A DNA stretch of 64,000 bases from Elusimicrobiota bacterium (lineage in GTDB: Bacteria; Elusimicrobiota; Elusimicrobia; UBA1565; UBA9628): assembly GCA_030696455.1 (NCBI GenBank), contig JAUYSH010000023.1, positions 3,492 to 67,491 of the forward strand. The letters run 5' to 3'. Positions 135 through 19,000 of this stretch are shown piece after piece. Each line of letters begins with the position of its first letter. Within the stretch, counting starts at the first letter, position 1. The position numbers and the translations under genes were made by a program. The notes beneath the pieces were generated by a model that did not search any database, had not been told where the DNA came from, and was given only the letters and a program-made list of their open reading frames with translations.

Positions 135-842
135 CTATTCCAAGCCCCAGGACCGGCGGGTCTCGGCGGCCTCTTCCTCGGAGCGGACCTTCTTGAACTT
201 CGCGGGGCGGCCCTTCACGCGGGCCTCGCACTCCCCCCACGTGGCGTGCCGCTGGACTTCCCCGTGGAGCAGGCTTATGTAGGAAACGGGGCGAGTGTCG
301 GCGGCCTTGCGGTCCTTGGGACGGACGGGAAGCGCCTTGGCTTCGGACGGCAAGAGAGAACCGTACGGATAGTTCAGCAGAGGCCCTTCGTAGAGCTCGA
401 TCGGCTGGCGCTTGGCGAGCGCGACGGCGATCTCGTCGCAGCGCTCGTTGGCGTCGTGTCCGGAGTGGCCCTTGACCCAGCGCCACTGCACGCCGCCGCG
501 GCCGCGCTCGGACACGACCCGGTCGAGCGTCCGCCACAGATCCTCGTTCTTGACCCGGTCGCCGGCGGCGGTCGTCCAGCCGCGGCGCTTCCATCCCAGG
601 ATCCACTTGGTGATGCCCTCGATGACGTAGGTCGAGTCGCTGTGGACCAAAGCGACGCCCGGCATGCCGCGCACGGCGGCGAGGCTCGCGATGACGCCGC
701 CGAGCTCCATGCGGTTGTTCGTCGTGGGCTCCTCGCGGCCGCCCAGCTCGAGGACCTTTCCGTCGGGCAACGCGATGATGGCGCCCCAGCCTCCCGGACC
801 GGGATTGCCGGAGCACGCGCCGTCGGTGAAGATCGAGATCAT
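135..842 (-). CDS. rnhA: Ribonuclease HI with a C-terminal hybrid-binding (HBD/Cauli_VI-like) domain
   Basis: 235 aa. The N-terminal ~150 aa has RNase HI catalytic motifs (FTDGAC, NNRMEL, HSDS, GHSGHDANERCD). Residues ~186-232 (nt 147-287) read TWGECEARVKGRPAKFKKVRSEEEA, the W/FKK/EEA signature of the RNase H1 hybrid-binding domain. Confidence 0.9.
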   Translation of the reverse strand: MISIFTDGACSGNPGPGGWGAIIALPDGKVLELGGREEPTTNNRMELGGVIASLAAVRGMPGVALVHSDSTYVIEGITKWILGWKRRGWTTAAGDRVKNEDLWRTLDRVVSERGRGGVQWRWVKGHSGHDANERCDEIAVALAKRQPIELYEGPLLNYPYGSLLPSEAKALPVRPKDRKAADTRPVSYISLLHGEVQRHATWGECEARVKGRPAKFKKVRSEEEAAETRRSWGLE

Positions 843-952
843 GACGGTAATGGTAGAACTTCGCCCTCGCCCCGCGCAAAAAGGCCCACCCGGCCTAGGT
901 CGTAAGAGTTATCACTCCTAGGACCTTCGCCTCTCGGGCGCGCTCGCCTCGG

Positions 953-3900
953 TTGGTAGTATTCCCCACTATGACCAATGTCATAATCCCGCGCAAGGCC
1001 GTCGCCGTTCTCGTTTCCGCCGCTCTCGTCGTCTCCGCCCCGGGGCCCTTCGCGGCCTCCGCCTTGGCCCAGACAATCGGCCGCGCGGCGCCCGCCGCCG
1101 GCGTCGGGTCGGGCGTCATCGTTCCCCTGAGAGCGCCGAGCTTCGCGCCGCTCTCCGCGCCGAGCCTCGCCGCTCCCAGCCTTCTCGCTCCCGCGCTTCA
1201 AGCGCTCGCCGCCCCTGCGGCGCTTCGCCCCGTCGTCGCCGTCGCCGCCGCGCCCGCGGCCGCCAAGCCCGCGACCGTCATCGCCGCCGTCCGCGCGCTG
1301 CAGACCGACCTGAGCGCGACGAACCGCGCCGGCGCGGACTCCGCCCCTGCGCTCGAGCGCTTCTGGACGAACGGCTCCTTCGCGGCCGCTAAGGATGACA
1401 CCGCCGTCCCCGCGGGCGACGCCGCGAAGTCTCCGGCCCCGCGCCTGGACCCCTCCAAACCCGTCTCTCCCGAGACCGACCCCGAGCTGTTCGCGCCGCG
1501 CTCCTCGCGCGTCGGCATCAGCCCGGCGAAGTACGTCTACTGGAACGCGCTGTACAACGTCCTGCAGTGGGCGAACCTCAAGTTCTCGAAGGATCCGAAC
1601 CGCCGCGTGTCCTGGGACAAGTGGCCCACCAAGCTCGGCCTCCTCTACCTCATCGGCAAGATCCGCTTCCTGCGCTCGGGCACGATCACCGACCCCTACG
1701 ACTACGCCGCCAACGACCAGAAGCCCAAGGGCGCGGAGCCCGAGCAGGCCAAGCGCGGCTACACCGCCGACGGCTCGTGGGCCGTCGACAAGGACAACCC
1801 GCGCATGGGCGCGGAGAACACCCGCTTCGGCTCCAACATCCCGCCCAAGCTGGTCCGCCCCGACGTCGAGAACATGACTCCGTCGGCGCGCGAGGTCGGC
1901 AAGCTGCGCCACCGCGACCAGGATCCGAACACGGGCAAGGACATCGTCAAGCCCGCGGGCATCCTCAACGATCTCGCCGGCGGCTGGATCCAGTTCCAGT
2001 TCCACAACTTCGGCGGCAACACCAAGCGCGACCCGATCGGCCAGAACCCGCACGTGATGCCCCGAAACGCGAGCGACAAGTGGCCGGAGAAGGAAGCGCT
2101 GCTCGACCGCACTTCTAAAGACCCGACTCGAGTCACTGATAACGGCCGGCCGACGCCGATGAACGAGCGCACCCAGGCCTGGATCCAGGCGCAGATCTAC
2201 GGCACGAACGACGAGGAGCAGAAGCCGCTGCGCACGTGGACCGACGGCAAGTTCCGCCTCGACGAGAACGGGAATCTCCCGCCGCACCCCACCAAGCCCG
2301 GCATCGATCACTCCGGCTTCATCAACAACTACAACCCCCTGCTCTCCTTCCTGCATTGGGCGTTCGTGGTCAACCACAACAACATCGTCGACCACCTGAA
2401 GAAGTTCAACCCCGGCTGGGACGACGCGAAGCTCTGGGACCATGCCCGCAAGATCAACGTCGCCTCCACCGCGCAGATCCACACGACCGAGTGGACCGAG
2501 GATCTCCTTCAGCACCCGACCCTTCAGGAAGGCATGCACGCCGAGTACTACGGCCTCCTCGGCCCCAAGTTCAAGGCGTGGGTGATGCGCGCGTCGTACC
2601 GCCACCCGTGGTTCGGCAAGCTGATGAAGCCGCTGACCGACAACGACGTGTTCTGGGGCATGCCCGGCTCGAAGTGGGAGCACCACGACGGCCCGTTCCA
2701 GGTGCCCAAGCACTTCCGCTTCGTCTATCGCCTGCACGAGATGATCTTGAGCGACCACGAGTTCGTCGCACCCCCCACGGCGACCTCCGGCGAGCGCCTG
2801 CTCGGCCGCCGCGAGCTCATCGACTTCATCCACTCGAACACGCGCCCGATCGTCGAGCAGTACGGCTACGACGTCCTCGCCTGGTCCTTCGTCCGCAAGT
2901 CCGCCGGCGCGCTCACGCTCAAGAACTTCCCGAAGGCGCTCACCCAGTTCAAGGACCAGCAGCACGACAAGCTGATGGACCTGGCCGAGGCCGACACCTT
3001 CCGCGAGCGCACCGACGGGACCGGCAGCTACAACGAGTTCCGCCGCTCCGTCGGCGAGCCGCCCGTGACGAGCTTCCTGGAGCTGACCGGCGGCGACGCC
3101 GAGATGGCCAAGGCGCTCGAGGTCAAGTTCGAGGGCGACATCGACAAGGTGGACGCCGGCATCGGCATCCTCGCCGAGCCCAAGCCCGCGGGCTTCGCGC
3201 TCGGCTTCACGCAGTTCTACCAGTTCGTCCTCAACGCCCCGCGCCGCGTGAAGTCGAACCGCCACCTCACCGAGCTCTATTCCCACAAGGACTACACGTT
3301 CGAGGGCATGGAGTGGCATTGGCACGCCGGCGGCATGGGCGGCGTCCTCGCCCGCGCGATGAAGGGCCTGCCCCGCGGCCAGGACGTCATCCGGGCCATG
3401 GAGGGCGTGACGCGCTGGTTCGCCCCGTGGCAGGACACGGAGACCTTCCCCGTCCGGCTGCTCGACGCGGCTAACGCGAATTCGAGCGACATCTTGAAGA
3501 AGACGTTCAAGCTCGCGCTCTGGGGCTCGTTCACGGCCTTCTCGGCTTGGATGGGTGTGGCGGTGTCGGCTTTCACGATCGTACCGGTCGCGGCGGCCGC
3601 ACTCGGCCTGCCGGTCCTCCTCTACTACAAGCGGATGCTGGCGTACCGCTACATGCAGAAGGCGTGGCAGTCCGCGTACACGGACCGCCGCCGCTCGATG
3701 TTCCCGACCTTGTTCCTCGGCGAGAAGGTCTCGCGCTGGGCGGCCGGCGCGGGCAAGCTCGCCGCGACCGCGGCGATGCTCGGCGCGGGCTTCGCGGCCT
3801 TCACCTTGTTCGCCACGAACCCGGTCGTCGCGATCTTCGCCGTCATCACGGCCCTCAAGGCCCGCGCGGTGATCGGCGCGACGAAGCGGTACGAGAACGA

Positions 3901-4909
3901 CATGGCGATCCTCAAGATCGCCCTGCAGAACCGCCTGCGCGAGGGCTATCCCGTCGCCACGGCGCGGGACGCCGCCCCCGAGGCGAAGTCCGATCTCGAG
4001 CGCCGCTATTGGATGATGGTCCCCGCGGGGGCCAAGCAGCCGGTGGCGACGGTTTGGCACAGCTACCGCGTGCTCCATGAGCACGGCCTCGGCCGCCTCA
4101 TGGCGTTCAAGACCGCGCTCATGTCGCACCTGATCTTCGGCCACCGCACGCGGCGCGGCATGGGGCTCAGGGCTCGATGGGATGCGGGGATCCTTTTCTC
4201 GCCCTTCGCCATCTATATTCCGAACATGGTCCAGGCGCAGGGCCCGTCGTCCACGGGCATCTACGCGCACGCGGGCAACGACAAGGGCCTGACGCCCGGC
4301 GACGTGGACCTGGCGATGTTCGACGAGATGTTCTCCCGCTACGCCCCGGGCCGCGACCACATGACGGCGTACGATTTCGCGCGCATGCGCGAGGACAAGC
4401 GCTGGCGCGATGGGCAGGCGGGGATCGGCGGGCCGGTCTCGCGCTGGCTCGGCGAGATCGCGGTGAAGAAGCGCACCAGCCAGCTCCTGCAGCTGTACGC
4501 GGACACGGTCGCCAACGAGGACAAGCATCTCGTCCCCGCCATCAGCCGCGGCATGATGCTGCGCGTCTACAAGGGAACGGCCCAGGCCGACATCGCCGCC
4601 GAGCGCGCGCTCGACGGCGTCCACCCGGACCTGCGCGCCGCGAACCCCGAGGGCAAGCCGACGCTCAAGGAGAAGGCGAAGGCCGACCTCCGCAAGCTCG
4701 GCGGCGCGATCCGCACGCTCTTGTCCGCGCTCGTGCTGCCGTACACCGGCGCGCGGTTCGCGGCGAACGCCCGCGCGTTCGGGACCTTCTTCAAGACGGT
4801 GTGGCAGACGGGCTGGATCGCGATCGCCGCGGTGGTCGCGTATTACGCCGTCCGCGACTCCATCCTCTACATCCTCATCCCCTACCTCGTCTTCAAGGGG
4901 TTCTTCTAG
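953..4909 (+). CDS. Secreted/membrane heme dioxygenase-peroxidase (alpha-dioxygenase/cyclooxygenase-like) fused to a caleosin-like domain
   Basis: 1318 aa with a signal peptide and an Ala/Pro-rich linker. Motifs: WIQFQFHNF (1985-2011), AEYYGLLGPKFK (2540-2575), HTTEWTEDLL, and VYRLH (2723-2737, catalytic Tyr plus proximal His as in plant alpha-DOX). Hydrophobic segments lie at ~3500-3870. A C-terminal region contains SPFAIYIPN (4199-4225) and MFSRYAPGRDHMTAYDFARMRE, resembling caleosin. A final TM helix follows. Confidence 0.8.
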   Translation: MVVFPTMTNVIIPRKAVAVLVSAALVVSAPGPFAASALAQTIGRAAPAAGVGSGVIVPLRAPSFAPLSAPSLAAPSLLAPALQALAAPAALRPVVAVAAAPAAAKPATVIAAVRALQTDLSATNRAGADSAPALERFWTNGSFAAAKDDTAVPAGDAAKSPAPRLDPSKPVSPETDPELFAPRSSRVGISPAKYVYWNALYNVLQWANLKFSKDPNRRVSWDKWPTKLGLLYLIGKIRFLRSGTITDPYDYAANDQKPKGAEPEQAKRGYTADGSWAVDKDNPRMGAENTRFGSNIPPKLVRPDVENMTPSAREVGKLRHRDQDPNTGKDIVKPAGILNDLAGGWIQFQFHNFGGNTKRDPIGQNPHVMPRNASDKWPEKEALLDRTSKDPTRVTDNGRPTPMNERTQAWIQAQIYGTNDEEQKPLRTWTDGKFRLDENGNLPPHPTKPGIDHSGFINNYNPLLSFLHWAFVVNHNNIVDHLKKFNPGWDDAKLWDHARKINVASTAQIHTTEWTEDLLQHPTLQEGMHAEYYGLLGPKFKAWVMRASYRHPWFGKLMKPLTDNDVFWGMPGSKWEHHDGPFQVPKHFRFVYRLHEMILSDHEFVAPPTATSGERLLGRRELIDFIHSNTRPIVEQYGYDVLAWSFVRKSAGALTLKNFPKALTQFKDQQHDKLMDLAEADTFRERTDGTGSYNEFRRSVGEPPVTSFLELTGGDAEMAKALEVKFEGDIDKVDAGIGILAEPKPAGFALGFTQFYQFVLNAPRRVKSNRHLTELYSHKDYTFEGMEWHWHAGGMGGVLARAMKGLPRGQDVIRAMEGVTRWFAPWQDTETFPVRLLDAANANSSDILKKTFKLALWGSFTAFSAWMGVAVSAFTIVPVAAAALGLPVLLYYKRMLAYRYMQKAWQSAYTDRRRSMFPTLFLGEKVSRWAAGAGKLAATAAMLGAGFAAFTLFATNPVVAIFAVITALKARAVIGATKRYENDMAILKIALQNRLREGYPVATARDAAPEAKSDLERRYWMMVPAGAKQPVATVWHSYRVLHEHGLGRLMAFKTALMSHLIFGHRTRRGMGLRARWDAGILFSPFAIYIPNMVQAQGPSSTGIYAHAGNDKGLTPGDVDLAMFDEMFSRYAPGRDHMTAYDFARMREDKRWRDGQAGIGGPVSRWLGEIAVKKRTSQLLQLYADTVANEDKHLVPAISRGMMLRVYKGTAQADIAAERALDGVHPDLRAANPEGKPTLKEKAKADLRKLGGAIRTLLSALVLPYTGARFAANARAFGTFFKTVWQTGWIAIAAVVAYYAVRDSILYILIPYLVFKGFF

Positions 4910-4916
4910 GAGCCCC

Positions 4917-5723
4917 ATGAAAAACCTTCTCCGCTCTCTCGTCGCCTCCGCCCTCCTCGCCTCGGCCGCGCACGCCGGCCCGATCCCCGAAGGCTCGTGG
5001 GGCGGCCTGTCGGCCCTGCTCAAGGGTCCCGACGTGATGGCCTTCCTCCTCAAGGCCGACAAGACGAACCCGACCGCGGGCTACGCGATCCTGGCGGAGT
5101 ACACCCGCCTTCCCTTCATCCCGGGGCCCGAGCGCCTGGAGATCGCGCGGTGGGTTCCCCGCCTCTACATCTACCGCGTGGAGCAGCTCGACAAGCTCCG
5201 CTTCGCGGTCAAGCCGCTGAAGGTCTCCGCGACGGGCGGCCTCGAGCTCGACGGCGGCTACGCCGCGGCGGGCGAGCTCACGCTCGCCAAGAAGGGGACC
5301 CTCGTCGGCGCCACCCTCACGCGCTACGAGAAGGGCGATCCCGCGGTCGCGGAGGTCGTGACCTTCGACGGAAAGGTGTCCTCGACCTGGGAAGGCTACG
5401 TGCCGGGCGCCTATTTCGGCTCCAAAGACTCGACCGGCGGCGACTACACGCACAAGAACATCAACACGCGCCTGGGCGACGATAAGGTCGCCGAATTCTT
5501 TCAGAGTGAGGTCAAAGGGAAGTTCGACATGACCGAGGCCGCGCCGGGGATCTTCACCTTCAAGGCCAAGGGCGCGATCGCCAAGGGCGCGGACAAGGTT
5601 CTCTCGCGCATCGCCGTGTTCGTCGACATCGTCAACTGGAAGCCCATCATGACGACCGACGAGCTCCTGCTGATCAACCCCGACGACGCTAAGGACGTCG
5701 GGTTCTACTACGAGCGTCATTAG
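4917..5723 (+). CDS. Secreted hypothetical protein, likely co-transcribed with the dioxygenase fusion
   Basis: 268 aa with signal peptide MKNLLRSLVASALLASAAHA. It starts 7 nt after the stop of the upstream gene. I recognise no family motif. Confidence 0.6.
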   Translation: MKNLLRSLVASALLASAAHAGPIPEGSWGGLSALLKGPDVMAFLLKADKTNPTAGYAILAEYTRLPFIPGPERLEIARWVPRLYIYRVEQLDKLRFAVKPLKVSATGGLELDGGYAAAGELTLAKKGTLVGATLTRYEKGDPAVAEVVTFDGKVSSTWEGYVPGAYFGSKDSTGGDYTHKNINTRLGDDKVAEFFQSEVKGKFDMTEAAPGIFTFKAKGAIAKGADKVLSRIAVFVDIVNWKPIMTTDELLLINPDDAKDVGFYYERH

Positions 5724-6708
5724 CCCGGCGCCAGACTCCCACGAACGCCTCAGCGCCGGCCGTCGCGGGAATGCCCGCGGCGGCCAGCTCTTTTAAGACC
5801 GAGGCGTAGCCGCTCGGGTCCGGGACGCCCTCGATGCGTCCGATCAGGCCGTTGAAATCCGAGCCGAGGACCACCGACTCGGGCCCCGCCTCGCGCGCCA
5901 TGATCGCCGCGTGCTTCATCAGGGAGCCCATGTCCGCCCCCGCGTAGTTCGCGGCGAGCGCCAGACCGACCAACCCGCCGCTGCGCTTCACTTCCCGCAG
6001 GAGCTCGTTCGAGATCGTCCGCTCGCACGGCGTCAGCGCGCGGGCGGCCTGATGCGTGAACAGCAAGGGCTGAGCCGGATGGCGGGCCGCCAGGTCGAAC
6101 GCTGTCTTGTCGCTCGCGTGGGTGAGGTCGAGCATGAGGCCTTTGGCCACGGCGTAGTCCGCGAGCGCCTCGCCCCGCTTCGACAGGCCCTTCGGGTTGA
6201 GGCGCACCGCGGCCTTGCCGCCCGGGATGCAGGTCGGCATCGGCCAGTATCGTCCCGCCGCCGCCCCGCCCCATCGCGTGTCCGTGAAGTGGGCGATGGT
6301 GAGCATACGCACGCCCCGGTCCCACAGCCGGTCGAGGCGCTCGGGCGTGTCGGCGCCGCCGGCCCCTTCCACGGCGAGGATCACTCCGAGGCGCCACTCC
6401 TTGGACTTGAGCACGGCCTCGGCCTCGTCGGGCGTGCGCACGATGCTCACGCGCGGGTCGCGGGCGGCCCAGCGCTCGACCTGATTGATCTGCCTCAGCA
6501 AAGCCCGGGCGTAGCCGCCCGTCAACTGGGAGAGGACGGGCGTCGCGTAAAGCGGGACGGCCACGAGCCGCATGTCCGCGGCCTCCAGGTCCTTGAGCTT
6601 AACCTGCGCCTCGATCATCGGAATGTGGAGGTGGAGGTCGATCGCCGAGGCGCCGGCGAACGAAGGGGCGAGCAGGAACGTCGCCGCGAGCCGCCGCCAG
6701 ATGGTCAT
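5689..6708 (-). CDS. Membrane dipeptidase, peptidase M19 family
   Basis: 339 aa with a signal peptide. Motifs IDLHLH, LTIAHFTDTRWGG, DLTHASDKT, FTHQAARAL and GSDFNG parallel the renal-dipeptidase family blocks. Confidence 0.75.
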   Translation of the reverse strand: MTIWRRLAATFLLAPSFAGASAIDLHLHIPMIEAQVKLKDLEAADMRLVAVPLYATPVLSQLTGGYARALLRQINQVERWAARDPRVSIVRTPDEAEAVLKSKEWRLGVILAVEGAGGADTPERLDRLWDRGVRMLTIAHFTDTRWGGAAAGRYWPMPTCIPGGKAAVRLNPKGLSKRGEALADYAVAKGLMLDLTHASDKTAFDLAARHPAQPLLFTHQAARALTPCERTISNELLREVKRSGGLVGLALAANYAGADMGSLMKHAAIMAREAGPESVVLGSDFNGLIGRIEGVPDPSGYASVLKELAAAGIPATAGAEAFVGVWRRANDARSRTRRP

Positions 6709-8461: not shown

Positions 8462-9463
8462 TTAACCGGCTCTTTGCGTGGCCTTGATCCAATGCGCCAG
8501 ACGCGCCATGCCGTCCTCGATTTTCACCCTCGGCAGCCAGCCGAGCTCGCGTTTGGCCGCCGAGATGTCGAACCAATGCGACGTGGTCAAGGTGTCCACC
8601 AGGAACTTGGTCAGCGGGGGCTCCGACCTCAGCCCCAGGGCGCGCCAGGTTCCCTCGCAGAGCGCGGCCGCCCCGAAGGCGACGCCCTTCGGCATGCGCT
8701 TCCTGACCGGCCCCAGCCCCGCCGCCGCCAGCATGCGCTCCATGAACTCCCAGATCGGGCGGGGATCGCCCCCGGACAGGAAGTAGGCCTTGCCGGAGAT
8801 CTCCGACAACGGCGAGAGCTGGATCGCGGCCAGCACGTGCGCCTCCACCGCGTCGTCGATGTAGATCGTGTCGACGAGCTTGTTGTCCTCGCCGATGCGG
8901 AACAGCCGCCCCGACTTCTGCCGGGCGATCACGCGCGGAAGTATGCTCCGGTCGCCGGGGCCCCAGATGAAGTGCGGGCGCAAGGACACGGTGGAGAGCC
9001 GGTCGTGATTGGCGGCGAGCGCCATCTGCTCCGACAGGGCCTTGGTCTGAGAGTAGAACGAGTCGTATCGCGCGGGATACGGCGCGGTCTCGTCGACGCC
9101 TTCGACGTCGCCGCCGTGGAACACGACGCTCGGAGAGCCCGTGAACACGAGCTTGCGAATTCCCTGCTCCTGGCACGCGCGCAGCACGTTCTTGGTCCCC
9201 TCCACGTTCACCGCGTGAAATTCCTCGTACGGGCCCCATAGGCCGACCTTCGCGGCGACGTGGAACACGACGTCGCGGTCGTCGCAGGCCGCCTTCAAGG
9301 CCTCGTAGTCGCCGACGTCGCCCTTGGCGCAGTCGATGCCGAGCGCCTCGAGGTCGGGGTAGGAGCCGCGGCCGTACACGCGGACCTCGTCGCCGCGCTC
9401 GCGCAGGCGGCGCGCCAGCGCGGCGCCCAGGAAGCCGCCTCCGCCGGTGACGAGCGCCCTCAC
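8462..9463 (-). CDS. oleD: OleD, NAD(P)H-dependent reductase (3-beta-HSD/epimerase family) of the olefin pathway
   Basis: 333 aa with Rossmann motif VTGGGGFLG. It is the fourth gene in canonical oleABCD order. GTG start overlaps the oleC stop (GTGA). Confidence 0.8.
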   Translation of the reverse strand: MRALVTGGGGFLGAALARRLRERGDEVRVYGRGSYPDLEALGIDCAKGDVGDYEALKAACDDRDVVFHVAAKVGLWGPYEEFHAVNVEGTKNVLRACQEQGIRKLVFTGSPSVVFHGGDVEGVDETAPYPARYDSFYSQTKALSEQMALAANHDRLSTVSLRPHFIWGPGDRSILPRVIARQKSGRLFRIGEDNKLVDTIYIDDAVEAHVLAAIQLSPLSEISGKAYFLSGGDPRPIWEFMERMLAAAGLGPVRKRMPKGVAFGAAALCEGTWRALGLRSEPPLTKFLVDTLTTSHWFDISAAKRELGWLPRVKIEDGMARLAHWIKATQRAG

Positions 9464-11067
9464 CCGAGCCGCCCCGCGGCCCAGACCGCCAGCGCCTCAC
9501 GGTTGATCTTGGCGTTATGGCGGGTATCGACGGGAAAAGACGGATGGAACAGGATGTCCTTGATGTCCTGGGTGAACGCCGGCCTTCCCGCGAGGCTCAA
9601 GATATCTTGCTTGAGGGCGTCGGTGGCCTGCGTTCCGGGCTCGAGCTCCACGCACAGCACGGGAATCAGGCCGACGCCGACGAGCGCCGTCCTCTTCACC
9701 TTCGGATGCGCGTTGAACACGCCCTCGACGCAGATCGTATAGTGCTCCCCCCGTTCCGTTCTCACGCGGTGCGCCTTGCGCCCGCAGAACCAGAGCCGCC
9801 CCTGCTCGTCATAGTAGCCGAGATCGCCCATGCGGTGCCAAAAGCCCCTCCCGTCGCCGATCTTGGCCTTGGCCATGTCGTCCACGCGCCGGAAGTACTC
9901 CCCGGTCACGACCGGGCCCTTCACCGCGATCTCCCCGACCGTGCCTTGCGGCACGCGCAGGTCGTCCGACCACGTCTTGATCGGTCCGTCCGACACGCGG
10001 ATCACGGCCGCCTCGATGCCCTTCACGGGACGGCCCACGCACACCCCCTCGCCTCGCAACGTCCTGGCCGCGGTTTCCCCCAGGATCTCGAACGAGGATG
10101 TCAGCGCGACGGGCAGGGCCTCGGTGGCGCCGTAGGGGGTGTAGATGGGCACGTTCTGGTTCAGCATCTTGGAGAACAAGGCCAAGGTCCTGGCCGGCAC
10201 CGGAGCGCCGGCGGACATCACGCGCTTGAGAGAGGGCAAAGCGATCCCGTGCTGGGCGCCGAAGCGGCCCACGCGGTCGAGCAAGGCGGGCGAGCCGAAC
10301 AGCTGGTGGATCCGGTATTTTTGCGTCGGCACGATGATCGCCATCGGATCCACCATGCCGGGCCGCGTGAAGTCCATGTCCGGGATCACCACCGTCTGGC
10401 CCAGCGCGGCGTCGAACAGGCCGAACAGCGGGAAGGTCGCCAAGGACAGCTCCCCCTCCTTTATGTCGAACAGCTCGCGGAGCTGGTCCACCTGGGCGGA
10501 GAACATCGAGTGCTCATACACCGCCCCCTTCGGGGCCCCGGTGCTGCCCGAGGTGAAGAGGATGGCGGCGCGCCCGTCGGCGGGCACCGGCGGGAGTTCG
10601 AGCGCGCGCCCCCGGCCGAGTTCGCGCATCGTCTCGAGCGTGGCCAATCCCAGGGACGGCCCCCCGGCGACGATCTTGAGGTTCGCCGACGGCGCCCAGC
10701 CGCCCAGCGTCCGCGCCAGATGCGCCTTGGCCGAGCCCACGAACGCGACCGGCTCCGACTCCGAGAGGCAGCGGCCCATGTTGGAGAAGCCGATGCCGGG
10801 GTCCACGAGCACCGGGGTCACGCCGGCGCGGAACAAGGCGAAGGCCGCGGCGAAGAAGTCCCGCGACGGAGGTATGAGGACGGCGACGCGGTCGTTCTTC
10901 TTGAGGCCCGCGCGCAGGAAGCCGTGGGCCAGGAGCTCGACGTCGCGGCCCAGCTCCTCGAACGTCGTGATCTTGTCGTGATGGATCAGCGCGGGCTGGG
11001 CGCCCAGGCGGCGCGCGTTGTCGAGGACGCGAGAGCCGAGGTCCGTCGCGAGCGCCGTCTCGCTCAT
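9460..11067 (-). CDS. oleC: OleC, AMP-dependent synthetase (beta-lactone synthetase)
   Basis: Start trimmed to ATG 11067 (MSETALATD...), because the 161-aa N-terminal extension in the ORF track is Arg/Gly-rich and overlaps oleB. AMP-binding motif FTSGSTGAPKG. ATGA overlap with the oleB stop. Confidence 0.85.
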   Translation of the reverse strand: MSETALATDLGSRVLDNARRLGAQPALIHHDKITTFEELGRDVELLAHGFLRAGLKKNDRVAVLIPPSRDFFAAAFALFRAGVTPVLVDPGIGFSNMGRCLSESEPVAFVGSAKAHLARTLGGWAPSANLKIVAGGPSLGLATLETMRELGRGRALELPPVPADGRAAILFTSGSTGAPKGAVYEHSMFSAQVDQLRELFDIKEGELSLATFPLFGLFDAALGQTVVIPDMDFTRPGMVDPMAIIVPTQKYRIHQLFGSPALLDRVGRFGAQHGIALPSLKRVMSAGAPVPARTLALFSKMLNQNVPIYTPYGATEALPVALTSSFEILGETAARTLRGEGVCVGRPVKGIEAAVIRVSDGPIKTWSDDLRVPQGTVGEIAVKGPVVTGEYFRRVDDMAKAKIGDGRGFWHRMGDLGYYDEQGRLWFCGRKAHRVRTERGEHYTICVEGVFNAHPKVKRTALVGVGLIPVLCVELEPGTQATDALKQDILSLAGRPAFTQDIKDILFHPSFPVDTRHNAKINREALAVWAAGRLG

Positions 11068-11951
11068 GCGGGAACGGGCCGCGCGACGAATTCCTTGATC
11101 AGGGCGACGACCTCCGCGCCCGCGTCCTCGAGCAGGAAGTGGCCGCAGTCCGGGAAGCGCTTCACCGTCGCCCTGGGAAAGCGCTTGAGCCAGCCGTTGA
11201 GGAAGGCCTCGTCGAACACCCAGTCCTTGAGCCCCCAGGGCAGAAGCATGGGAACGTCCTGGAGCGTCCCGAGCTTGCTCTCGGTGTCGACGACCGTGTC
11301 CCAGGCCGGGTCCCCCGGCTGAAGCGGGATGTCCTGCACGAAGCGGTGCACCGCGCGGCTGGCGCTCCAGCCGTCGTAGGGCTCCAGGTAGCCGGCCCTC
11401 TCCTCGGGCGACAGGGTCTTCTTCGCGGTGCAGGTGCGCAGCACGACCCCGCGCGCGAAGCCCAGCGCGCGCAGCGGTATGCCGGTCAGGGCTCCCCGCA
11501 TGATCTCCAGGCCCTTGGGGAACTTCTTCTCTTCTGGAAGACGAAAACACGAAGTGTTAAGCGCCACGATGGCCTTGATCCGCTCGGGATGGCGCACGGC
11601 CCAGGACATGCCGATCATGCCGCCCCAGTCGTGCACGATCAAGGTGACGGGGCCCGTGGGGGCCACGCGCTCCATCAAGGCGTCGAGGTCGTCGACGCGG
11701 TTCTTGAGCGTGTACGCGTAGCGCTTGTCCGGCGGGCGGTCGGAGAGGCCCATGCCGATGTGGTCGGGGACGATGCAGCGGAAATCGGGCGAGAGCGCTT
11801 TGACGACCTCGCGGAAATAAAAAGAACAGGTCGGGTTGCCGTGGACCATCAGGACGGTCTCGCCCTTGCCCTCGTCGAGGTAATGCATGGCGACGCCGCC
11901 GAGGTCGATGCGGCGGCCCTTGAAAGGGTAAAGCGCCTTCCAGGAGTCCAT
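11064..11951 (-). CDS. oleB: OleB, alpha/beta-hydrolase (haloalkane-dehalogenase-like; beta-lactone decarboxylase)
   Basis: HGNPTCSFYF and the nucleophile elbow VHDWGG. A start at ATG 11951 (MDSWK) gives a TGATG overlap with the oleA stop. Confidence 0.85.
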   Translation of the reverse strand: MDSWKALYPFKGRRIDLGGVAMHYLDEGKGETVLMVHGNPTCSFYFREVVKALSPDFRCIVPDHIGMGLSDRPPDKRYAYTLKNRVDDLDALMERVAPTGPVTLIVHDWGGMIGMSWAVRHPERIKAIVALNTSCFRLPEEKKFPKGLEIMRGALTGIPLRALGFARGVVLRTCTAKKTLSPEERAGYLEPYDGWSASRAVHRFVQDIPLQPGDPAWDTVVDTESKLGTLQDVPMLLPWGLKDWVFDEAFLNGWLKRFPRATVKRFPDCGHFLLEDAGAEVVALIKEFVARPVPA

Positions 11952-12964
11952 CACCACTCCAGCCCCAGCATCATGCAATTGAGCCCCGAGCCGATGCCGA
12001 TGAAGCCCACACGGTCGCCCTTGTTGAGAAAGCCGCGCTCGTCGGCCAAGGCGGCGGTGAGCGGCAGGCTCACCGTGCCGATGTTGCCCAGGAACTCGTA
12101 GGTCGGGAAGTCCTTTTCCGCGCCGACGCCGCAGGCGTTGAGCAGAGCGGTCGTCTGGGGGCCGCCGACCTGGTGGGTGATGGTCTTATCCATGTCCGCG
12201 CTGCTCCAGTTCATTTTCTTGGAGAAGCTGAGCCAGGTGAGCTTGGCCAGCTCCATGCCGTTCTTGAGCACGGCGGGCGCGTCGGTCCTCATGAAGTCGC
12301 GGTCCCACTGGCACAGGTCCCAGTGCTGGGGCGCGGCCTGCACGGTGCCGCCAAGCAGCTTCGGGCCCGTCTTGCCGAAGCTTCCGTCGGTCAGGACCAC
12401 GCCGACGGCGCCGGAGCCGCCGGTCAAGGTCGCGATCGAGAGCTTGAAGTGCTCCATGGTCGGGTTCTTGAGCATGGAGGCGATCATCGCCTCGTTGATC
12501 TCGCGGGCCGACTCGCAGGAGACGACGAGGCCGGCCTTGATGTGCCCGAGCTCGATGCGATTGGCGATATCCACCATCGCCGACAAAACACCGAGGCAGG
12601 CGTTCGAGATATCGAAGACGGCGCAATCCTTGCTCACGCCCAGCTTCGAGGCGACGGCGCAGGCGGTCGCGGGCTCGGAGGATTCCTTGCAGACGCCGGC
12701 GTAGACGACGACGCCGAGGTCCGAGGGCTTCACGCCCGCCTTGGCGAGCGCCTTGCGGCCGGCGGAGGCGGCGCCGTCGGAGAGCTTGAAGCCCGCGTCC
12801 CACCAGCGGCGTTCCTTGATGCCTGTTAAGGCTTCGATCTGTCCCACCTGAAACCGGAGCGCGTCGTAGACGGGCTGGATGCGCTTCTCGAGCTCGGAGG
12901 AGGTGACCACGTTGGGGGCGAGTTCGTAAGCCAGACCGTCGAGGGTGACCTTGGTGTATTTCAT
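11951..12964 (-). CDS. oleA: OleA, thiolase-fold (KAS III-like) head-to-head condensing enzyme
   Basis: 337 aa. It is colinear by eye with Xanthomonas OleA as I remember it (GLAYELAP..TSSELE..QP.YD, SEPATA, active-site DISNACLG). It is the first gene of the oleABCD order. Confidence 0.85.
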   Translation of the reverse strand: MKYTKVTLDGLAYELAPNVVTSSELEKRIQPVYDALRFQVGQIEALTGIKERRWWDAGFKLSDGAASAGRKALAKAGVKPSDLGVVVYAGVCKESSEPATACAVASKLGVSKDCAVFDISNACLGVLSAMVDIANRIELGHIKAGLVVSCESAREINEAMIASMLKNPTMEHFKLSIATLTGGSGAVGVVLTDGSFGKTGPKLLGGTVQAAPQHWDLCQWDRDFMRTDAPAVLKNGMELAKLTWLSFSKKMNWSSADMDKTITHQVGGPQTTALLNACGVGAEKDFPTYEFLGNIGTVSLPLTAALADERGFLNKGDRVGFIGIGSGLNCMMLGLEW

Positions 12965-13028: not shown

Positions 13029-16000
13029 ACGATCTCAGCTTCAAAGTAAAATCGCGCATTTCGTAAACGACGAGCCCGTCGCGCAAAAGGTAGCCGTCCG
13101 CCGTGAGGGTCTTCGAGGACTCATCGACGGCGGTGATCCAGCATTGGACCTCGACGGCCTTGTTCACGGGCGTGTACTGGCCGCGGTACAGCCACTTGTG
13201 GGTGCGGCCGAGGACCATGGACTCGAAGCGGCCGGCGCCGGGCCAGCGGTCGCGGGCGTGGCACTTCATCAACTCGATGAACGATTCCAGGCCGAGGGAG
13301 CCGGGGCAAACCGGGTCTTGGTAGAAATGGGCGCTGAAGAACCACTCGCTGGGATTGACGGCGCGGCGGCCGATGAGCGCGCCGAGGCCCTTTGGACCGG
13401 CATTATCATACTGCTCGACGGAATCAAGCAGCAGGAGCATAGGACCGGGCAACGCTGGAGTCCCTCCCTTCAGGGAGAGGGTCCTCGGCGTGGTCGAAGG
13501 AATGAACTGCTTCGCGCCGCGCAGACCGACCTGCTGAGAGAGCGACTCCTTGGTGAAGAACCCGAACTCGGTCTTGCCCTGATAGACGAGGCGACCCTGG
13601 GCATCGGTCATGGTCATGTCGTAGTTCTGGATGATCATCCCGCCGGACTGGGACACCTTGGTCATCACGACGCTCGTGACGAGGGTTCCGGTCTCGGGCG
13701 TGACCTCGACATGCTGTATGGCGTCGCCTCCCAGATTTCTAAACGACAAATCAACGGGGCTTGTTAATGCGGAGCCGCAGTAGGCGGCGAGCCAGCCGCA
13801 GGGCTGCAAAGCGACCTCGAGCAAGATCGCGAACGGCATGGTCGCCTGGCCGTTCTCGCGGAAGTACCAGGCATCCTTGGGGATCGCGTACTCGGCGATG
13901 GCGGAGGCGCCCGCCTTGAGGACGAACGGCTCGCCCTTCAGGCCGACGATGCGGTCGAGGAATTGATAAGGCGGGCCCGGCAAACGGGCCAGGATACGGT
14001 CCTTATCGAAGATCTTGTAGGGCGCGCCGAAGGCCTCGGACGGGTTGCCGTTCGAGTAGGCCATGATCTTGTCGGAGTCGTAGTAGACCGTCTTCTCATT
14101 CTTGAGCCACAGGGACTCGATGGCGGACCGATTCGTGCCGGAGAGACGGACCGACATGTCGGTGATCTGGACGATATTCTTATCATCCGAATACATAAAC
14201 GCGTCCGCGACGCAGAACGGAGTCCCATCGGCCTCGTAACCCAGCTCCTTGATGTGAAGCTCGTAGCGGGCCTTCTTGGTCGAGGCGAGGACCTGGCCGC
14301 GGCACTTGAGCTGGGAGGCGACGCCGGGGACGGGCTCGTGCCAGACCTTGCCCTTCTCCCCCACCCAGCCCATGCGCATCAATTGGACGCGGAGCGTGTG
14401 CAAGCAGCATTCGTACATCAAGGTGCCGGGCATCACGTTGTCGTCCTTGAAGTGACAGACGAGGTGCCAATCGTCGGGATGTATGTCCATTTCGCCGACG
14501 GCGCGGCCGAGGCCGTAGCGGCCGCCCTTGGGATCCAGCTCGAGGATCCGGTCGACGAGCTTCATGCGGCCGCCGGGCAAGGTATCCGGAACGAAAGGCA
14601 GGGACGCGAATGCCGGACCAAATGCCGTCTTCAAATCTCCGGCGCGTAGGGACTCGAATTGACCTTCGGTCAACGACACCTTATCAGTGAACGGCACGAG
14701 GGGCTTCCAATCAGACGGAACCTTACCCGGGACCGGCATTTTTTCGGCGTCGGTCAGAACGATCCCCTTGCCTTTCGCGAGTTCGGCGTTCGTGAAGAAG
14801 CCGGCGCAGCCTTTGCGCATGGTGAGCAGGGGCTTCCCATCGACCGTTGAATCGTACCGGAAGAAGAAAAGCCAGATGTCGTCGTGCTGGCCGAAGCCGT
14901 CGATGCTGATGTCGTACCTGATCACCTGGCCGGGCTTCGGCAAATGATCGTGGAAGGTGACGATGGCGTCGAGAAGGCGGTAAACCGCGTTGCCTTTCGT
15001 CTTGGAGTCGATGCCAAGGTAGCCGGAAAGGAAAAGGTCGGCCTGGCCGGCTTCGACGGCGATGCAGGTGGGGATGCGGCCGGAGTCCAAATACCAGCCA
15101 TTATGAAGCACGTCATGCTCGGTGATGCAGGAGCCGGGCTTCATGGAGTTCGGGGTGCCCGTCACGGAGAGGATGCGGTCGCACAGCATCAGGGGCTCCT
15201 CGGGGAGCCTGACTCGCGTGGGGTAGGAGTCCACGTGGGCGAAGGCTTCGCCGAGGACGGCGCCGATCTTGCCGGAGGCGTATTCGAGGCACGCCTTGCG
15301 GTCCATGAAGACGGATTTTTTCAACGGCAACGGATCGGGCGCGGATGCGGGGGCCGGAATAACGGATTGTCCCGAAGCGATGCGGATCTGCTGGCTGAGG
15401 TTGTGGGTCTGGAGCTTGGCGAAGTTCTCCGCGATTTTGAGGTACACCTGGTGGGCCTGCGCCGTCAGCGCGGCCGCGTTGGACAGGCTTCCGGCCGCGG
15501 ACGGCGCCGCCTGCGGGGAAACGACTGTTTCCGGAAACAGTTGGCGGGACGGAGATGGCTGGAACTCGTCGCCGGGAAGGCGGGGCTCGGGGATGCGCCG
15601 GGACGGAGCTAAGACCGGCACGGGCTCGTGACGAGGAGCGGGGGCTGGACTTGCCGCCTTCGGCGGCGACGGAGGAGACCAGGACACTTTGGCGGGACGG
15701 GCGCCTAAGGGTAAGCGGACGTATTGCGCCGGCTGCGCCGGCGCGCTTTGGTGACCGGCGCAGAAGGAACGAGCGCCGTAGAGCTGCTTCAAATCGACGG
15801 GGACGCGTTCGGCGATCAGGAAGGCCAACGTTTTAAGAATGCCCGACACATCGTCGAGCCCTCGACTGTCGACCGGCCTTGCGTTGTGGGTGAGCGGGCC
15901 TAGAATCTTACCGATCATTCTCGTGCACGAGCCCTGGGGACCTAATTCGATGAACGTGCGCACGCCGTCTTCATAGGCCGTTTTGATCAATGCCGAAAAA

Positions 16001-19000
16001 TTGACCGACCGGATGGCTTGGGTCGTGATGCTATCGGCGGCGGACTCGCGCGTGACCTCGTACGCCTTTCCAAAAGCACCGGAGTAGTACCGGATCCCCT
16101 TAGGGGCGCGGGTCGGGAAAAGATGGAGATCACGGTACTGCTTCTCCACCAATTTAGCGGCCGGGAAGTGCACCGTCGAGACGCCCTGCAACGGCAGGAA
16201 CACGCAGCCCAATCCTTCCACTAATTTCTCGACCGCCGAGCGATATCCCCCCACCACGCACTCGACGGGAGCGTTCACGATCAAGAGGGCCGCGCGCTCC
16301 GCGCCCTTGAGCGCCATGTTGACCGCGTCGGCGGGGCGGTCGACCACGCCGAGCACCCAGTCCACTTTTTCATTCGCGGGCAGGCGCCAGAACTGGCGGG
16401 CGGCGTCGCAGGGGCCGGCGAGCTCGGAGGTGAAGAGCGAGGATTGCTTCATGCGCCGGAGCATCTCGTCGCGGGCGGTCCAGGCGCGCGTGGCGAACAG
16501 GCCGGCGGTCTCGCCCAGGCTGTAGCCGACGACGGCGGAGGGGTTCACGCCCAGGGAGCGCATGAGATCGCTCGTCACGGTGCCGTGGGCGACCGAGGCG
16601 AAGATCAGGGCGTGGTAGTCGGCGTTGAGCTCGCTGTCGGCCTTGGCCTCCCAGCCCGGCTCGAAGGCGAGTCGCCAGGGGGCCACGCGCGCGGGCGTCA
16701 TCTGGTCGCGCAGGTGGCCGTTCTCCGCGTCCTGGCGGCGCAGGACCTCGGGCCACTGCGCGCCGAGGGCGGCGGTCATGCCCAGGTACTGGTTGCCCGA
16801 GCCGGGGAAGACGAAGGCCAGGTCCCCACCCAGCGGCGGGCGCGTGGTGAGGAAGGCGCGGTCGGAGGGCAGCGGGCGCTCGGGGTTGTCGCGCACCGAC
16901 TCGACGGCCATGCGCGCGACGGTGAGCAGCTCCTTCCAGTCGCGCGCGACGATGGCGCAGGCGTGGGAGGCTTCGGGCGAGGAGCCGCGCTTGAGCCACC
17001 AGCGGCGGGCGAGGGCCTCGATGCCGTCGCCGGGGTCCTGGGCGGCGGCCCAGTCGATCAGGGCGTTCAGGTCGGCCAGCAGGAAGACGGGGTCGGCGGC
17101 CTCGACGGCGAACAGGGCCTCGAGGCGCGAGCCGAGAGGCTGTCGGCGCTCGTCCTCGACGAGCGGGTCCGAGGTCTCGCGCTCGAGCTGTTCGAGCACG
17201 ACGTGGACGCAGCCGCCGTCGACGCCGAGGGAGGTGACGCCGGCGCGGCGCGGGCCGTCGGCGCGGTTTCGCAGCCAGAAGGAGGCGCGGCGCGGCGAGT
17301 GGAAGCGCTTGGACGCCGTCGACAGGGGCGAGATCGGGTTGACGATCGTCGGCCCGGCCGGGAGGATTTCCTGATAGAGGGATAAGGCGGCCTTGACCAG
17401 GCCCGCCAGGCCCGCGGCCGCGCCGGCATGGCCGATCACGGATTTCGAGGAGGACAAGGCGAGGGGCAGGTCGGCCGCGGCCGTGCCGAAGAACTCGACG
17501 GCCGCGGCGGCCTCGCAGCGATCCTCCTTGGCGTCGCCGGAGCCGTGGCACTCCAAAAGACCGATGGTGCTCGGGTCCACCTTCGCGTCGTCGTAAGCGC
17601 GGCGAAGAGCCTCGACGCAAGCCTCCGGCGTGGGGACGACCGAGTCGGCTCCTCCGCCGGAGGCGGCTCCAAGGCCCTTGATCACCGCGTAAATCCGGTC
17701 GCCGTCGCGCAGGGCGTCGTCGAGGCGCTTGAGCACGACCGTGGCGGCGCCCTCGCCGGGGGTCGAGCCGTCGGCGGAGGCGTCGAACGGGCGCGGGCGG
17801 CCGCCGGCCGAGAAGGGCTTGAGCGCGTGCGACCCGGCCAGCGCGCGGGCCTCGCCCGCGACGTCGGCGGCGCCGGCGACGGCGGCGTCCACCTCGCCGC
17901 GCTGAAGGGCGCGGACGGCCGCCTCGAGCGCCTTGAGGCCGGAGTTCTCCTCGGCGGAGACGGTGAAGCTCGGGCCGCCGAGGCGGAACTCGCGCGCGAC
18001 GCGGCTGGCGGCGACGCTCGCCAGGCCGCCCATCACGCGGTTCGCGGTGAGGGCGGGGCCGCAGGCGTCCCGCAGGGAGGAAAGCCAGGAGTACCGCTCC
18101 GCGGACGACAACGACCAGGCCTTTGCCTTGGCCCAGGCGTCAGCCGAATTTTCAAGGGACCAACGCAGATCGTAATGCGTGATCGCCATATCAAAAGCGA
18201 CGCCGAGGAAGACCCCGACTCTATCACGTCCTTCTTCCGATAATTTCGAGTCGGCAATCGCCGCCGCGGCGCTCTGCAGCGCCAGGAGTTGCTGCGGCAG
18301 CATCTCCTCCATTTCTTTAGGAGGGATCCGAAAGGAGGCGGCATCCGAGCCGGCCTCGGGCAGAAATCGGCCTTTGAAGCCGGCCGGGGCGTCGATGCCC
18401 TGCCAACGGTCCTCGGCGTACGAGGACTCCGGCTCGATGCCGCCGAGGACCGCTTCCTGATATGAGCGGAGATCGGGCAACGAGCCGAATCGAGCGTCCA
18501 TGCCGACGATGGCGACGGGGACGGACGACGGACTTGCGCGGCGAACGGATGGAGTACTCTTTGCGGGCGCCTTACGACGCTCCGGAGCCTCTTCCACAAG
18601 CAAATGAGCATTGATGCCGCCGAAGCCGAAGGCTGATAGCGCGGCTCGCCGCGGCGTCTTTGCATCGCGCCTCGACCATGGCGATGCTTCCGATTGAACA
18701 CGAAAGGGACTCTCCGAAAGACCGGCATTCGGATTAGGAGTGGAGTAGTTCGCGTTAGGAGGAAGGATCTCGTTTTCGAAACCCAACAACACTTTCATTA
18801 AGCCCGCGGAACCCGCCGCCGTGAGAAGATGACCGATGTTGGACTTGACCGATCCCAAGGCGCACTGACCCTTGGTCCAGCCCCTTTCTCCCCATAATGC
18901 TTTCAAGCTCGCCACCTCGATCGGATCGCCGGTCGGCGTTCCCGTCGCGTGGCACTCGATGAAGTCGATCTGAGACGGCGAAAGTCCGGATTCGAGATAG

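Follow-up and report, generated by a model that had tools for sequence, protein, structure and literature searches.

We report that a 64,000-nucleotide stretch of an Elusimicrobiota bacterium genome (contig JAUYSH010000023.1 of assembly GCA_030696455.1, positions 3,492 to 67,491 of the forward strand; hereafter the window) encodes a single polypeptide that joins an alpha-dioxygenase (alpha-DOX)-type haem domain to a domain homologous to caleosins. The first domain retains the functional residues of alpha-DOX and the second has lost both caleosin haem ligands. The fusion is conserved in other genomes, as is a probable partner gene directly downstream of it. Based on these observations, we lean towards an alpha-DOX-type fatty-acid oxygenase that is exported and anchored to the membrane, to which an accessory domain of the caleosin fold, probably free of haem, is rigidly attached, with a secreted beta-protein as its partner.

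Integrity of the fusion gene

The open reading frame (ORF; 953..4909, plus strand) comprises 1318 codons and is open from TTG 953. Its likely start is ATG 971 (MTNVIIPRK...), which would give 1312 amino acids (aa), because the Elusimicrobiota homologues begin in the same way; residues are counted from TTG 953 throughout. The GC content at third codon positions (GC3) of the ORF is 0.95, uniform and similar to that of the neighbouring genes, as expected of a real gene in a window of 67.6 % GC. An antisense ORF of 1407 aa (839..5062, minus strand) spans the whole fusion gene and was dismissed as a high-GC shadow.

A first-pass annotation, made by a model from the letters of the window, had described the 1318-aa ORF and quoted several of its motifs, all of which were located as reported (Table 1). 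The signal peptide, Ala/Pro-rich linker, hydrophobic segments and terminal helix that it had noted were likewise seen, by hydropathy (hydrophobic stretches at aa 859-893, 936-977 and 1289-1309) and by composition. It had also considered that two genes might have been joined by misassembly. More than 80 full-length relatives (31-92 % identity) were identified on contigs independent of one another, two of which are 3.1 and 3.8 Mb long, and this rules out an assembly chimera. The identical architecture recurs on dozens of such contigs from several phyla, the reading frame is unbroken and the full-length structure model is confident. Nothing was found in favour of a chimera or a pseudogene uniting two unrelated genes, and we regard the chance of either as negligible.

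The alpha-dioxygenase-type haem domain

The haem domain was assigned by family, sequence and fold. Pfam places PF03098 at aa 272-789 (E 1e-51). Among PDB sequences, the best matches were the rice and Arabidopsis alpha-DOXs (E 3.5e-62 and 1.2e-61, respectively), aligned end to end over aa 216-801, and the next classes were peroxidases (5e-11) and cyclooxygenases (COX; 2e-7). Foldseek likewise ranked the rice and Arabidopsis alpha-DOX structures at the top (E 3e-30, target template modelling (TM) score 0.81-0.84), followed by peroxidases (1e-17) and COX (1e-13). The alpha-DOX-like haem domain that the first-pass annotation had recognized from motifs is thus borne out by all three comparisons.

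The functional residues of rice alpha-DOX and their roles have been described (His157, His311, Thr316, Tyr379, His382 and Arg558/559; PMC8720084), and every one of them has a counterpart in the DOX domain of the fusion (Table 1). Across 57 aligned family members, His510, Trp514, Thr515, Tyr592, His595 and Arg765 are invariant, and His351 and Arg764 are nearly so.

In the Foldseek alignments the domain is only 26-27 % identical to plant alpha-DOX, and its regiospecificity could accordingly differ from that of the plant enzymes. The haem domain might instead be another fatty-acid dioxygenase, akin to Nostoc linoleate 10S-DOX or to the fungal 8/9/10-DOXs, or else simply a peroxidase, and would then yield a mid-chain hydroperoxide or no product. 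Besides the low identity, this would fit cyanobacterial relatives that join DOX with a catalase-related protein, much as Nostoc 10S-DOX is accompanied by a hydroperoxide lyase (PMC13049297), and a fatty-acid desaturase neighbour at locus L004, which hints at unsaturated substrates. However, the Tyr/His spacing of VYRLH together with His510, Thr515 and Arg764/765 constitutes the alpha-DOX signature for binding the substrate carboxylate-in, the 10S-DOX motifs (FxxxY342; PMC13049297) do not match, and peroxidases and COX score far lower by both sequence and fold. We consider a non-alpha activity improbable and, from the sequence, predict alpha-regiospecificity.

Caleosin homology of the C-terminal domain

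The C-terminal domain is more divergent. In the whole protein PF05042 scored 24.3 bits (E 3.4e-5), under the 27-bit cut-off, and with the isolated domain it scored 28.5 bits. Twenty of 23 diverse family domains matched PF05042, the best at E 9.5e-9. A profile of 23 domains was then used in an exhaustive HMMER search, without a word index, of 1.84e9 proteins. Beyond the domain's own family it retrieved proteins of 200-320 aa at E 3e-11 to 1e-3; all ten of the distant matches that were scanned are genuine members of PF05042, with Pfam E values between 1e-16 and 1e-43, and nine of them have EF-hand matches. Profile-profile comparison of the fusion domains with 29 caleosins by hhalign gave a probability of 99.96 % (E 2.7e-38) over 178 columns. 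The caleosin set includes AtCLO1 (245 aa), which has His at 70 and 138, in agreement with the numbering of the haem histidines.

The exhaustive search was needed: a word-indexed search with the C-domain profile recovered only pieces of fusion-family proteins and not one caleosin. A search of PDB sequences with this profile gave insignificant haemoglobin matches only, with no solved caleosin-type structure to compare, and an NCBIfam scan gave nothing useful. Pfam support for the domain calls, which had been made from motifs, is far beyond chance. Taken together, PF05042, the reciprocal profile search and hhalign establish at the sequence level that the C-terminal domain is homologous to caleosins, so the first-pass proposal of one polypeptide uniting the two kinds of domain stands.

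Loss of the caleosin haem ligands

Caleosins are recognized by three features (PMC6309107): an EF-hand that is conserved, a hydrophobic domain that binds lipid and contains a proline-rich motif, and a pair of invariant His residues that coordinate haem and are required for activity. Both His are kept in 29 of 29 true caleosins aligned here, within LQxH (His70) and GKHxSD (His138). In the profile-profile alignment, His70 (LQKH) corresponds to Arg1018 (LERRYW) of the fusion and His138 (GKHxSD) to Gly1097 (VQAQG). Among the 87 family members with a complete domain, the first position is Arg in 75, His in eight and another residue in four, and the second is Gly in 62, Ser in 16 and His in one. The aligned members have no invariant His anywhere in the domain.

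Of the other two hallmarks, the first is lost and the second is kept in part. The equivalent of the EF-hand loop is MMVPAGAKQPVATV, with no acidic ligand, and in contrast to true caleosins no EF-hand Pfam family matches the fusion protein; the absence of the EF-hand had been noted in the first-pass annotation. Where caleosins have their central hydrophobic segment the fusion domain has a charged loop, GHRTRRGMGLRARWD, and hydropathy shows no hydrophobic window within aa 1010-1235. The proline motif, SPFAIYIPN, is kept and Pro1090 is invariant. Judging by the structure model, membrane anchoring would be taken over by two upstream hairpins.

These results alter the first-pass reading of the domain as a peroxygenase. 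VLHEHG had been equated with caleosin VLQQHV, but the caleosin counterpart of VLHEHGL is GLRxLG, on the downstream side of the former EF-hand, and the His1044 of VLHEHGL is His in only 36 of the 87 members. With Arg1018 and Gly1097 in place of both haem His, canonical peroxygenase activity, and with it a self-contained two-haem oxylipin enzyme, is unsupported; the first-pass annotation had itself named the loss of these ligands as evidence against its proposal. Nor does the protein have the second module of a bifunctional DOX fusion: Pfam finds no P450 or catalase domain, and the C-terminal domain has no conserved canonical haem ligand.

Members with His at the His70-equivalent position carry LEKHGRYF or LEKHVGFF (P0100, P0109, P0120, P0125, P0128-P0130 and P0138), and the single member with His at the His138-equivalent position is P0132. 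By sequence, the LEKHGxxF minority look like intermediates between canonical caleosins and the type found in the window.

A two-haem enzyme could nevertheless be imagined in which non-canonical ligands of the caleosin-like domain (for example Tyr1019 together with Arg1018, or else the clade-specific pair His1044/His1059) bind haem and this domain uses, or reduces, the 2-hydroperoxide product of the DOX domain, the whole being a self-sufficient oxylipin synthase. In plants, alpha-DOX1 and CLO3 catalyse coupled reactions that give 2-HOT on leaf lipid droplets (PMC6914826), and a fusion of both folds would fit Rosetta-stone logic. The domain is strongly conserved, with RYW near-invariant at the former His70 site, and the occasional His at the two ligand positions (8/87 and 1/87) might be read in the same way. 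Sister architectures that add a catalase-related domain also indicate that hydroperoxide-handling haem modules have been recruited to this DOX family. The same recruitment, however, speaks against the hydroperoxide chemistry being supplied by the caleosin-like domain itself. Moreover, the two His that are invariant in caleosins, including all 29 of our set, and required for their peroxygenase activity (PMC6309107) have given way to Arg and Gly here, as in most members. We think a two-haem synthase unlikely and prefer to regard the domain as probably haem-free.

A role as a Ca2+-sensing EF-hand regulator that switches the DOX domain on, in the manner of the DUOX EF-hands, is far less credible still. 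Caleosins are EF-hand proteins, several metagenomic caleosins have two canonical EF-hands, and DUOX structures are among the fold matches, through their peroxidase domain. Yet the domain has no acidic ligands at either caleosin EF-hand loop, the second of which is present in some metagenomic caleosins, and it matches no EF-hand family.

Proposed membrane anchoring and export

A structure model of aa 200-1318 (1119 residues) was computed with AlphaFold2 (AF2) from an alignment of 57 family members. Its mean predicted local distance difference test score (pLDDT) was 85 and its predicted TM score (pTM) was 0.86. A pTM of 0.86 over 1119 residues implies that the DOX domain, the hairpins and the caleosin-like domain are held in a fixed mutual arrangement in the model. 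The four long helices between the two domains (pLDDT ~90) pair into two helical hairpins, with the hydrophobic stretches (859-893 and 936-977) at their tips. These hairpins are conserved in all architectures. The Obscuribacterales and Xanthobacteraceae homologues, which lack a signal peptide and begin directly with the DOX domain, keep them along with the same basic inter-hairpin loop.

Whether the hairpins dip into the membrane or each cross it twice, the number of crossings would be even, so that the DOX domain and the caleosin-like domain would both lie on one side. Retention of the hairpins with or without a signal peptide fits a same-side, monotopic-like anchor that may be usable on either membrane face. 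The signal-peptide-like N-terminus and the linker are present in the Elusimicrobiota homologues, and within this clade the protein is apparently exported. The linker contains 43 Ala and 21 Pro among 160 residues (aa 41-200) and has no match in Pfam or among PDB sequences. The C-terminal tail is clade-specific.

Proposed function

Based on these observations and on previous work with plant alpha-DOX, we propose the following mechanism. A Tyr592 radical generated by the haem would take hydrogen from C-2 of a free fatty acid whose carboxylate is held by His510 and Arg765. Addition of O2 would give the 2-hydroperoxy fatty acid, which would either break down to the Cn-1 aldehyde and CO2 or be reduced to the 2-hydroxy acid. 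The two hydrophobic-tipped hairpins would keep the enzyme at the membrane surface, where its substrate is found, and hold the C-terminal domain on the side of the DOX domain. As a degenerate caleosin homologue, the C-terminal domain most likely has no haem peroxygenase role. We predict instead that it is docked rigidly and serves as an accessory module in gating, in assembly or in the handling of lipid or substrate. The secreted beta-protein of 268 aa encoded downstream, whose gene is probably co-transcribed, is a probable partner, possibly as a carrier of a hydrophobic ligand.

Several points weigh against this proposal. In addition to the low identity discussed above, the HDW and WWDGS motifs of plant alpha-DOX, whose residues are Ca2+ ligands, are HNF and WIQAQ here (window 2003-2011 and ~2180-2215). 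The rigid docking of the caleosin-like domain is read from the pTM. A haem-b enzyme exported by Sec requires haem loading in the periplasm. Finally, many charged and aromatic residues of the C-terminal domain are invariant (RYW, APGRD, YD, VPAIS, FYQG). This constraint could reflect a catalytic or cofactor site that has gone unrecognized, and the Arg-Tyr pair found where His70 used to be recalls the ligation of haem by tyrosinate.

A bolder scenario, to which we assign a rather low probability, is that the caleosin fold is bacterial in origin and was at first a built-in partner of alpha-DOX, the fusion being a Rosetta stone for one physical unit. In its strongest version a second haem would be bound through Arg1018/Tyr1019, with tyrosinate-type ligation, and the protein would represent an undescribed kind of two-haem synthase.

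Distribution and sister architectures

In species-representative genomes the fusion domain occurs in Elusimicrobiota (most loci), Obscuribacterales, Planktothrix, Planctomycetota and one Xanthobacteraceae genome, all of them metagenome-assembled genomes (MAGs). In some proteins from Obscuribacterales and Planktothrix a catalase-related domain is added at the N-terminus, and at other Obscuribacterales loci a homologous gene of ~340 aa lies just upstream of the DOX-caleosin-like gene. This alternation of fused and separate forms resembles the pairing of Nostoc 10S-DOX with a hydroperoxide lyase that is catalase-related and a separate protein (PMC13049297).

A stand-alone canonical caleosin (P0152; L033 4870-5805) was found in an Elusimicrobia MAG. 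It matches PF05042 at E 5e-43 and has both haem His and an EF-hand, and the genes on either side are ordinary bacterial ones (exonuclease VII, FtsJ-like). Neighbours differ at more distant loci: the fatty-acid desaturase is the divergent neighbour at L004, and a different family of 195-213 aa lies directly downstream of the fusion at several of these loci.

Genomic neighbourhood

The 268-aa gene is a probable operon partner of the fusion, being directly downstream of it in 11 Elusimicrobiota loci. Its product has ~100 homologues, none of them named. One, of 43 % identity, adjoins a stand-alone 702-aa alpha-DOX-like gene in a Bdellovibrionaceae MAG, and in another genome a homologue is not beside an alpha-DOX-like gene. 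The stand-alone Bdellovibrionaceae DOX retains the HDW and WWDGS motifs. The model of the 268-aa protein is all-beta (pLDDT 90). The protein has no match in Pfam or among PDB sequences, and Foldseek returned nothing at E <= 0.001, with weak lipocalin/nitrophorin-like similarity at E >= 0.07. Kinship with the downstream genes of distant loci L004 and L002 was considered, and comparison showed no relation.

On the opposite strand, 3.5 kb from the fusion gene, begins a set of oleABCD and pfa genes, an Elusimicrobiota example of a polyunsaturated olefin cluster. Its presence was correctly noted in the first-pass annotation as a polyunsaturated fatty acid (PUFA)/polyolefin cluster. The further suggestion that it could supply substrates is unsupported, and we rejected the cluster as functional evidence for the DOX, because ole genes accompany the fusion only in close relatives.

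Table 1. Features of the fusion gene, its product and its neighbourhood (nucleotide positions refer to the window unless a locus is named)
Feature	Position	Strand	Basis
DOX-caleosin-like fusion protein gene	971..4909	+	ORF; homologue N-termini; >80 full-length homologues
Sec-type signal-peptide-like N-terminus, aa 7-39 (basic n-region, hydrophobic core, ASALA/Q at the putative cleavage site)	971..1069	+	hydropathy
Ala/Pro-rich low-complexity linker, aa 40-204	1070..1564	+	composition
Alpha-dioxygenase-type haem domain, aa ~205-828	1565..3436	+	Pfam, PDB sequence match, Foldseek, key residues
Four long helices (putative membrane anchor), aa 829-867, 876-906, 913-952, 957-996	3437..3940	+	AF2 model, hydropathy
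Caleosin-homology domain, aa 1010-1220	3980..4612	+	Pfam, profile searches, hhalign
C-terminal helices including hydrophobic helix aa 1289-1309 (nt 4817-4879)	4664..4897	+	hydropathy; model pLDDT 50-70
WIQFQFHNF	1985-2011	+	motif located in translated ORF
HTTEWTEDLL	2480-2509	+	motif located in translated ORF
AEYYGLLGPKFK	2540-2575	+	motif located in translated ORF
VYRLH	2723-2737	+	motif located in translated ORF
VLHEHG	4070-4087	+	motif located in translated ORF
SPFAIYIPN	4199-4225	+	motif located in translated ORF
MFSRYAPGRDHMTAYDFARMRE	4328-4393	+	motif located in translated ORF
Distal His: His351 (WIQFQFH) = rice His157			alignment with rice alpha-DOX
Carboxylate binding: His510 = rice His311			alignment with rice alpha-DOX
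C-alpha positioning: Thr515 = rice Thr316			alignment with rice alpha-DOX
Catalytic Tyr: Tyr592 = rice Tyr379, three residues before proximal His			alignment with rice alpha-DOX
Proximal His: His595 (VYRLH) = rice His382			alignment with rice alpha-DOX
Carboxylate binding: Arg764/765 = rice Arg558/559			alignment with rice alpha-DOX
Gene for 268-aa secreted all-beta protein, unnamed family	4917..5723	+	8 bp downstream of fusion; predicted signal peptide
Terminator-like GC-rich hairpin, 12 bp stem and T-rich tail, after 268-aa gene	5758..5785	+	consensus scan only
oleD/oleC/oleB/oleA-like set and pfa-type PUFA synthase	8462-28983	-	
3beta-HSD-type reductase (ole set)	8462-9463	-	
AMP-ligase (ole set)	9460-11550	-	
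Alpha/beta hydrolase (ole set)	11067-11978	-	
Thiolase (ole set)	11951-12964	-	
pfa-type KS-KS-AT-FabA x2	13030-19929	-	
pfa-type KS-AT-ACPx3-KR-DH	21114-27449	-	
Enoyl-reductase-like gene (pfa)	27457-28983	-	
268-aa family homologue	L031 8001-8948		
Triple fusions, catalase-related + DOX + caleosin-like	L017 1178-5539; L023 5304-9347		
Separate upstream catalase-related gene	L002 6858-7922; L018-L020		
Distant-locus neighbour genes (desaturase, 195-213-aa family)	L004 6793-7893, 11789-12376; L022 8617-9258; L026 8758-9201		

Significance

Caleosin homologues thus exist in bacteria in two forms, one degenerate and fused to alpha-DOX in several phyla, the other standing alone with both His and an EF-hand in an Elusimicrobia MAG. 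The two forms bear directly on the origin of the caleosin family. A natural fusion of alpha-DOX with a caleosin homologue predicts a direct physical partnership of plant alpha-DOX1 and CLO3, and the loss of the haem ligands suggests that the caleosin fold has a function besides peroxygenase chemistry. The fusion should be of interest to specialists in oxylipins and lipid droplets. Membrane-anchored bacterial alpha-DOXs are also of interest for fatty-aldehyde biocatalysis, and this long class was filtered from the published survey: bacterial alpha-DOXs are known (CalDOX, LepDOX), and the published alpha-DOX phylogeny dropped sequences of more than 1000 aa and trimmed extensions, which excluded the long fusions.

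Comparison with known systems

As the first-pass annotation had supposed, no characterized bacterial DOX-caleosin fusion was found in the literature searched, nor were prokaryotic caleosins, and the caleosin-evolution papers in that literature nowhere mention prokaryotes. The closest known relatives of the haem domain are the plant and cyanobacterial alpha-DOXs (rice OsaDOX, 4kvj/4kvl; Arabidopsis alpha-DOX1, 4hhr/4hhs; CalDOX; LepDOX), which have the same fold and are its best match by both sequence and structure. The likeness extends to the distal and proximal His, the catalytic Tyr in V-Y-R-x-H, and the equivalents of His311, Thr316 and Arg559. The fusion is twice as long as these enzymes. 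It adds a signal peptide, the Ala/Pro-rich linker, two membrane hairpins, the caleosin-like domain and a C-terminal hydrophobic helix, and has HNF/WIQAQ where the plant enzymes have HDW/WWDGS.

With the caleosins (PF05042; AtCLO1/PXG1, AtCLO3/RD20), homology covers nearly the whole caleosin domain (the 178 columns aligned at 99.96 %), and the motifs xPFxIYIxN, FxxMF, EGN-RD, LxAD and VPAISR..L..FYxG are common to both. The fusion domain differs in having Arg for His70, Gly for His138, no EF-hand loop ligands and a charged loop for the central hydrophobic segment. Whereas caleosins are lipid-droplet proteins of 25-30 kDa, the fusion domain is bacterial and lies behind a DOX domain.

The two folds united here are those of the plant alpha-DOX1 and CLO3 pathway. 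The plant pathway has two separate proteins, its caleosin being a haem enzyme; in the fusion the folds form one polypeptide whose caleosin part is without haem ligands. The fungal DOX-P450 fusions (linoleate diol synthases/Ppo) and Nostoc 10S-DOX with its lyase likewise combine a DOX of the COX/peroxidase superfamily with a second module, and sister proteins of the present family, with a catalase-related domain fused N-terminally or encoded just upstream, follow the pattern of such DOX/hydroperoxide-enzyme pairs. Unlike the DOX-P450 and Nostoc systems, the fusion described here has as its partner neither a P450 nor a catalase but a domain of the caleosin type, with no recognizable haem ligand.

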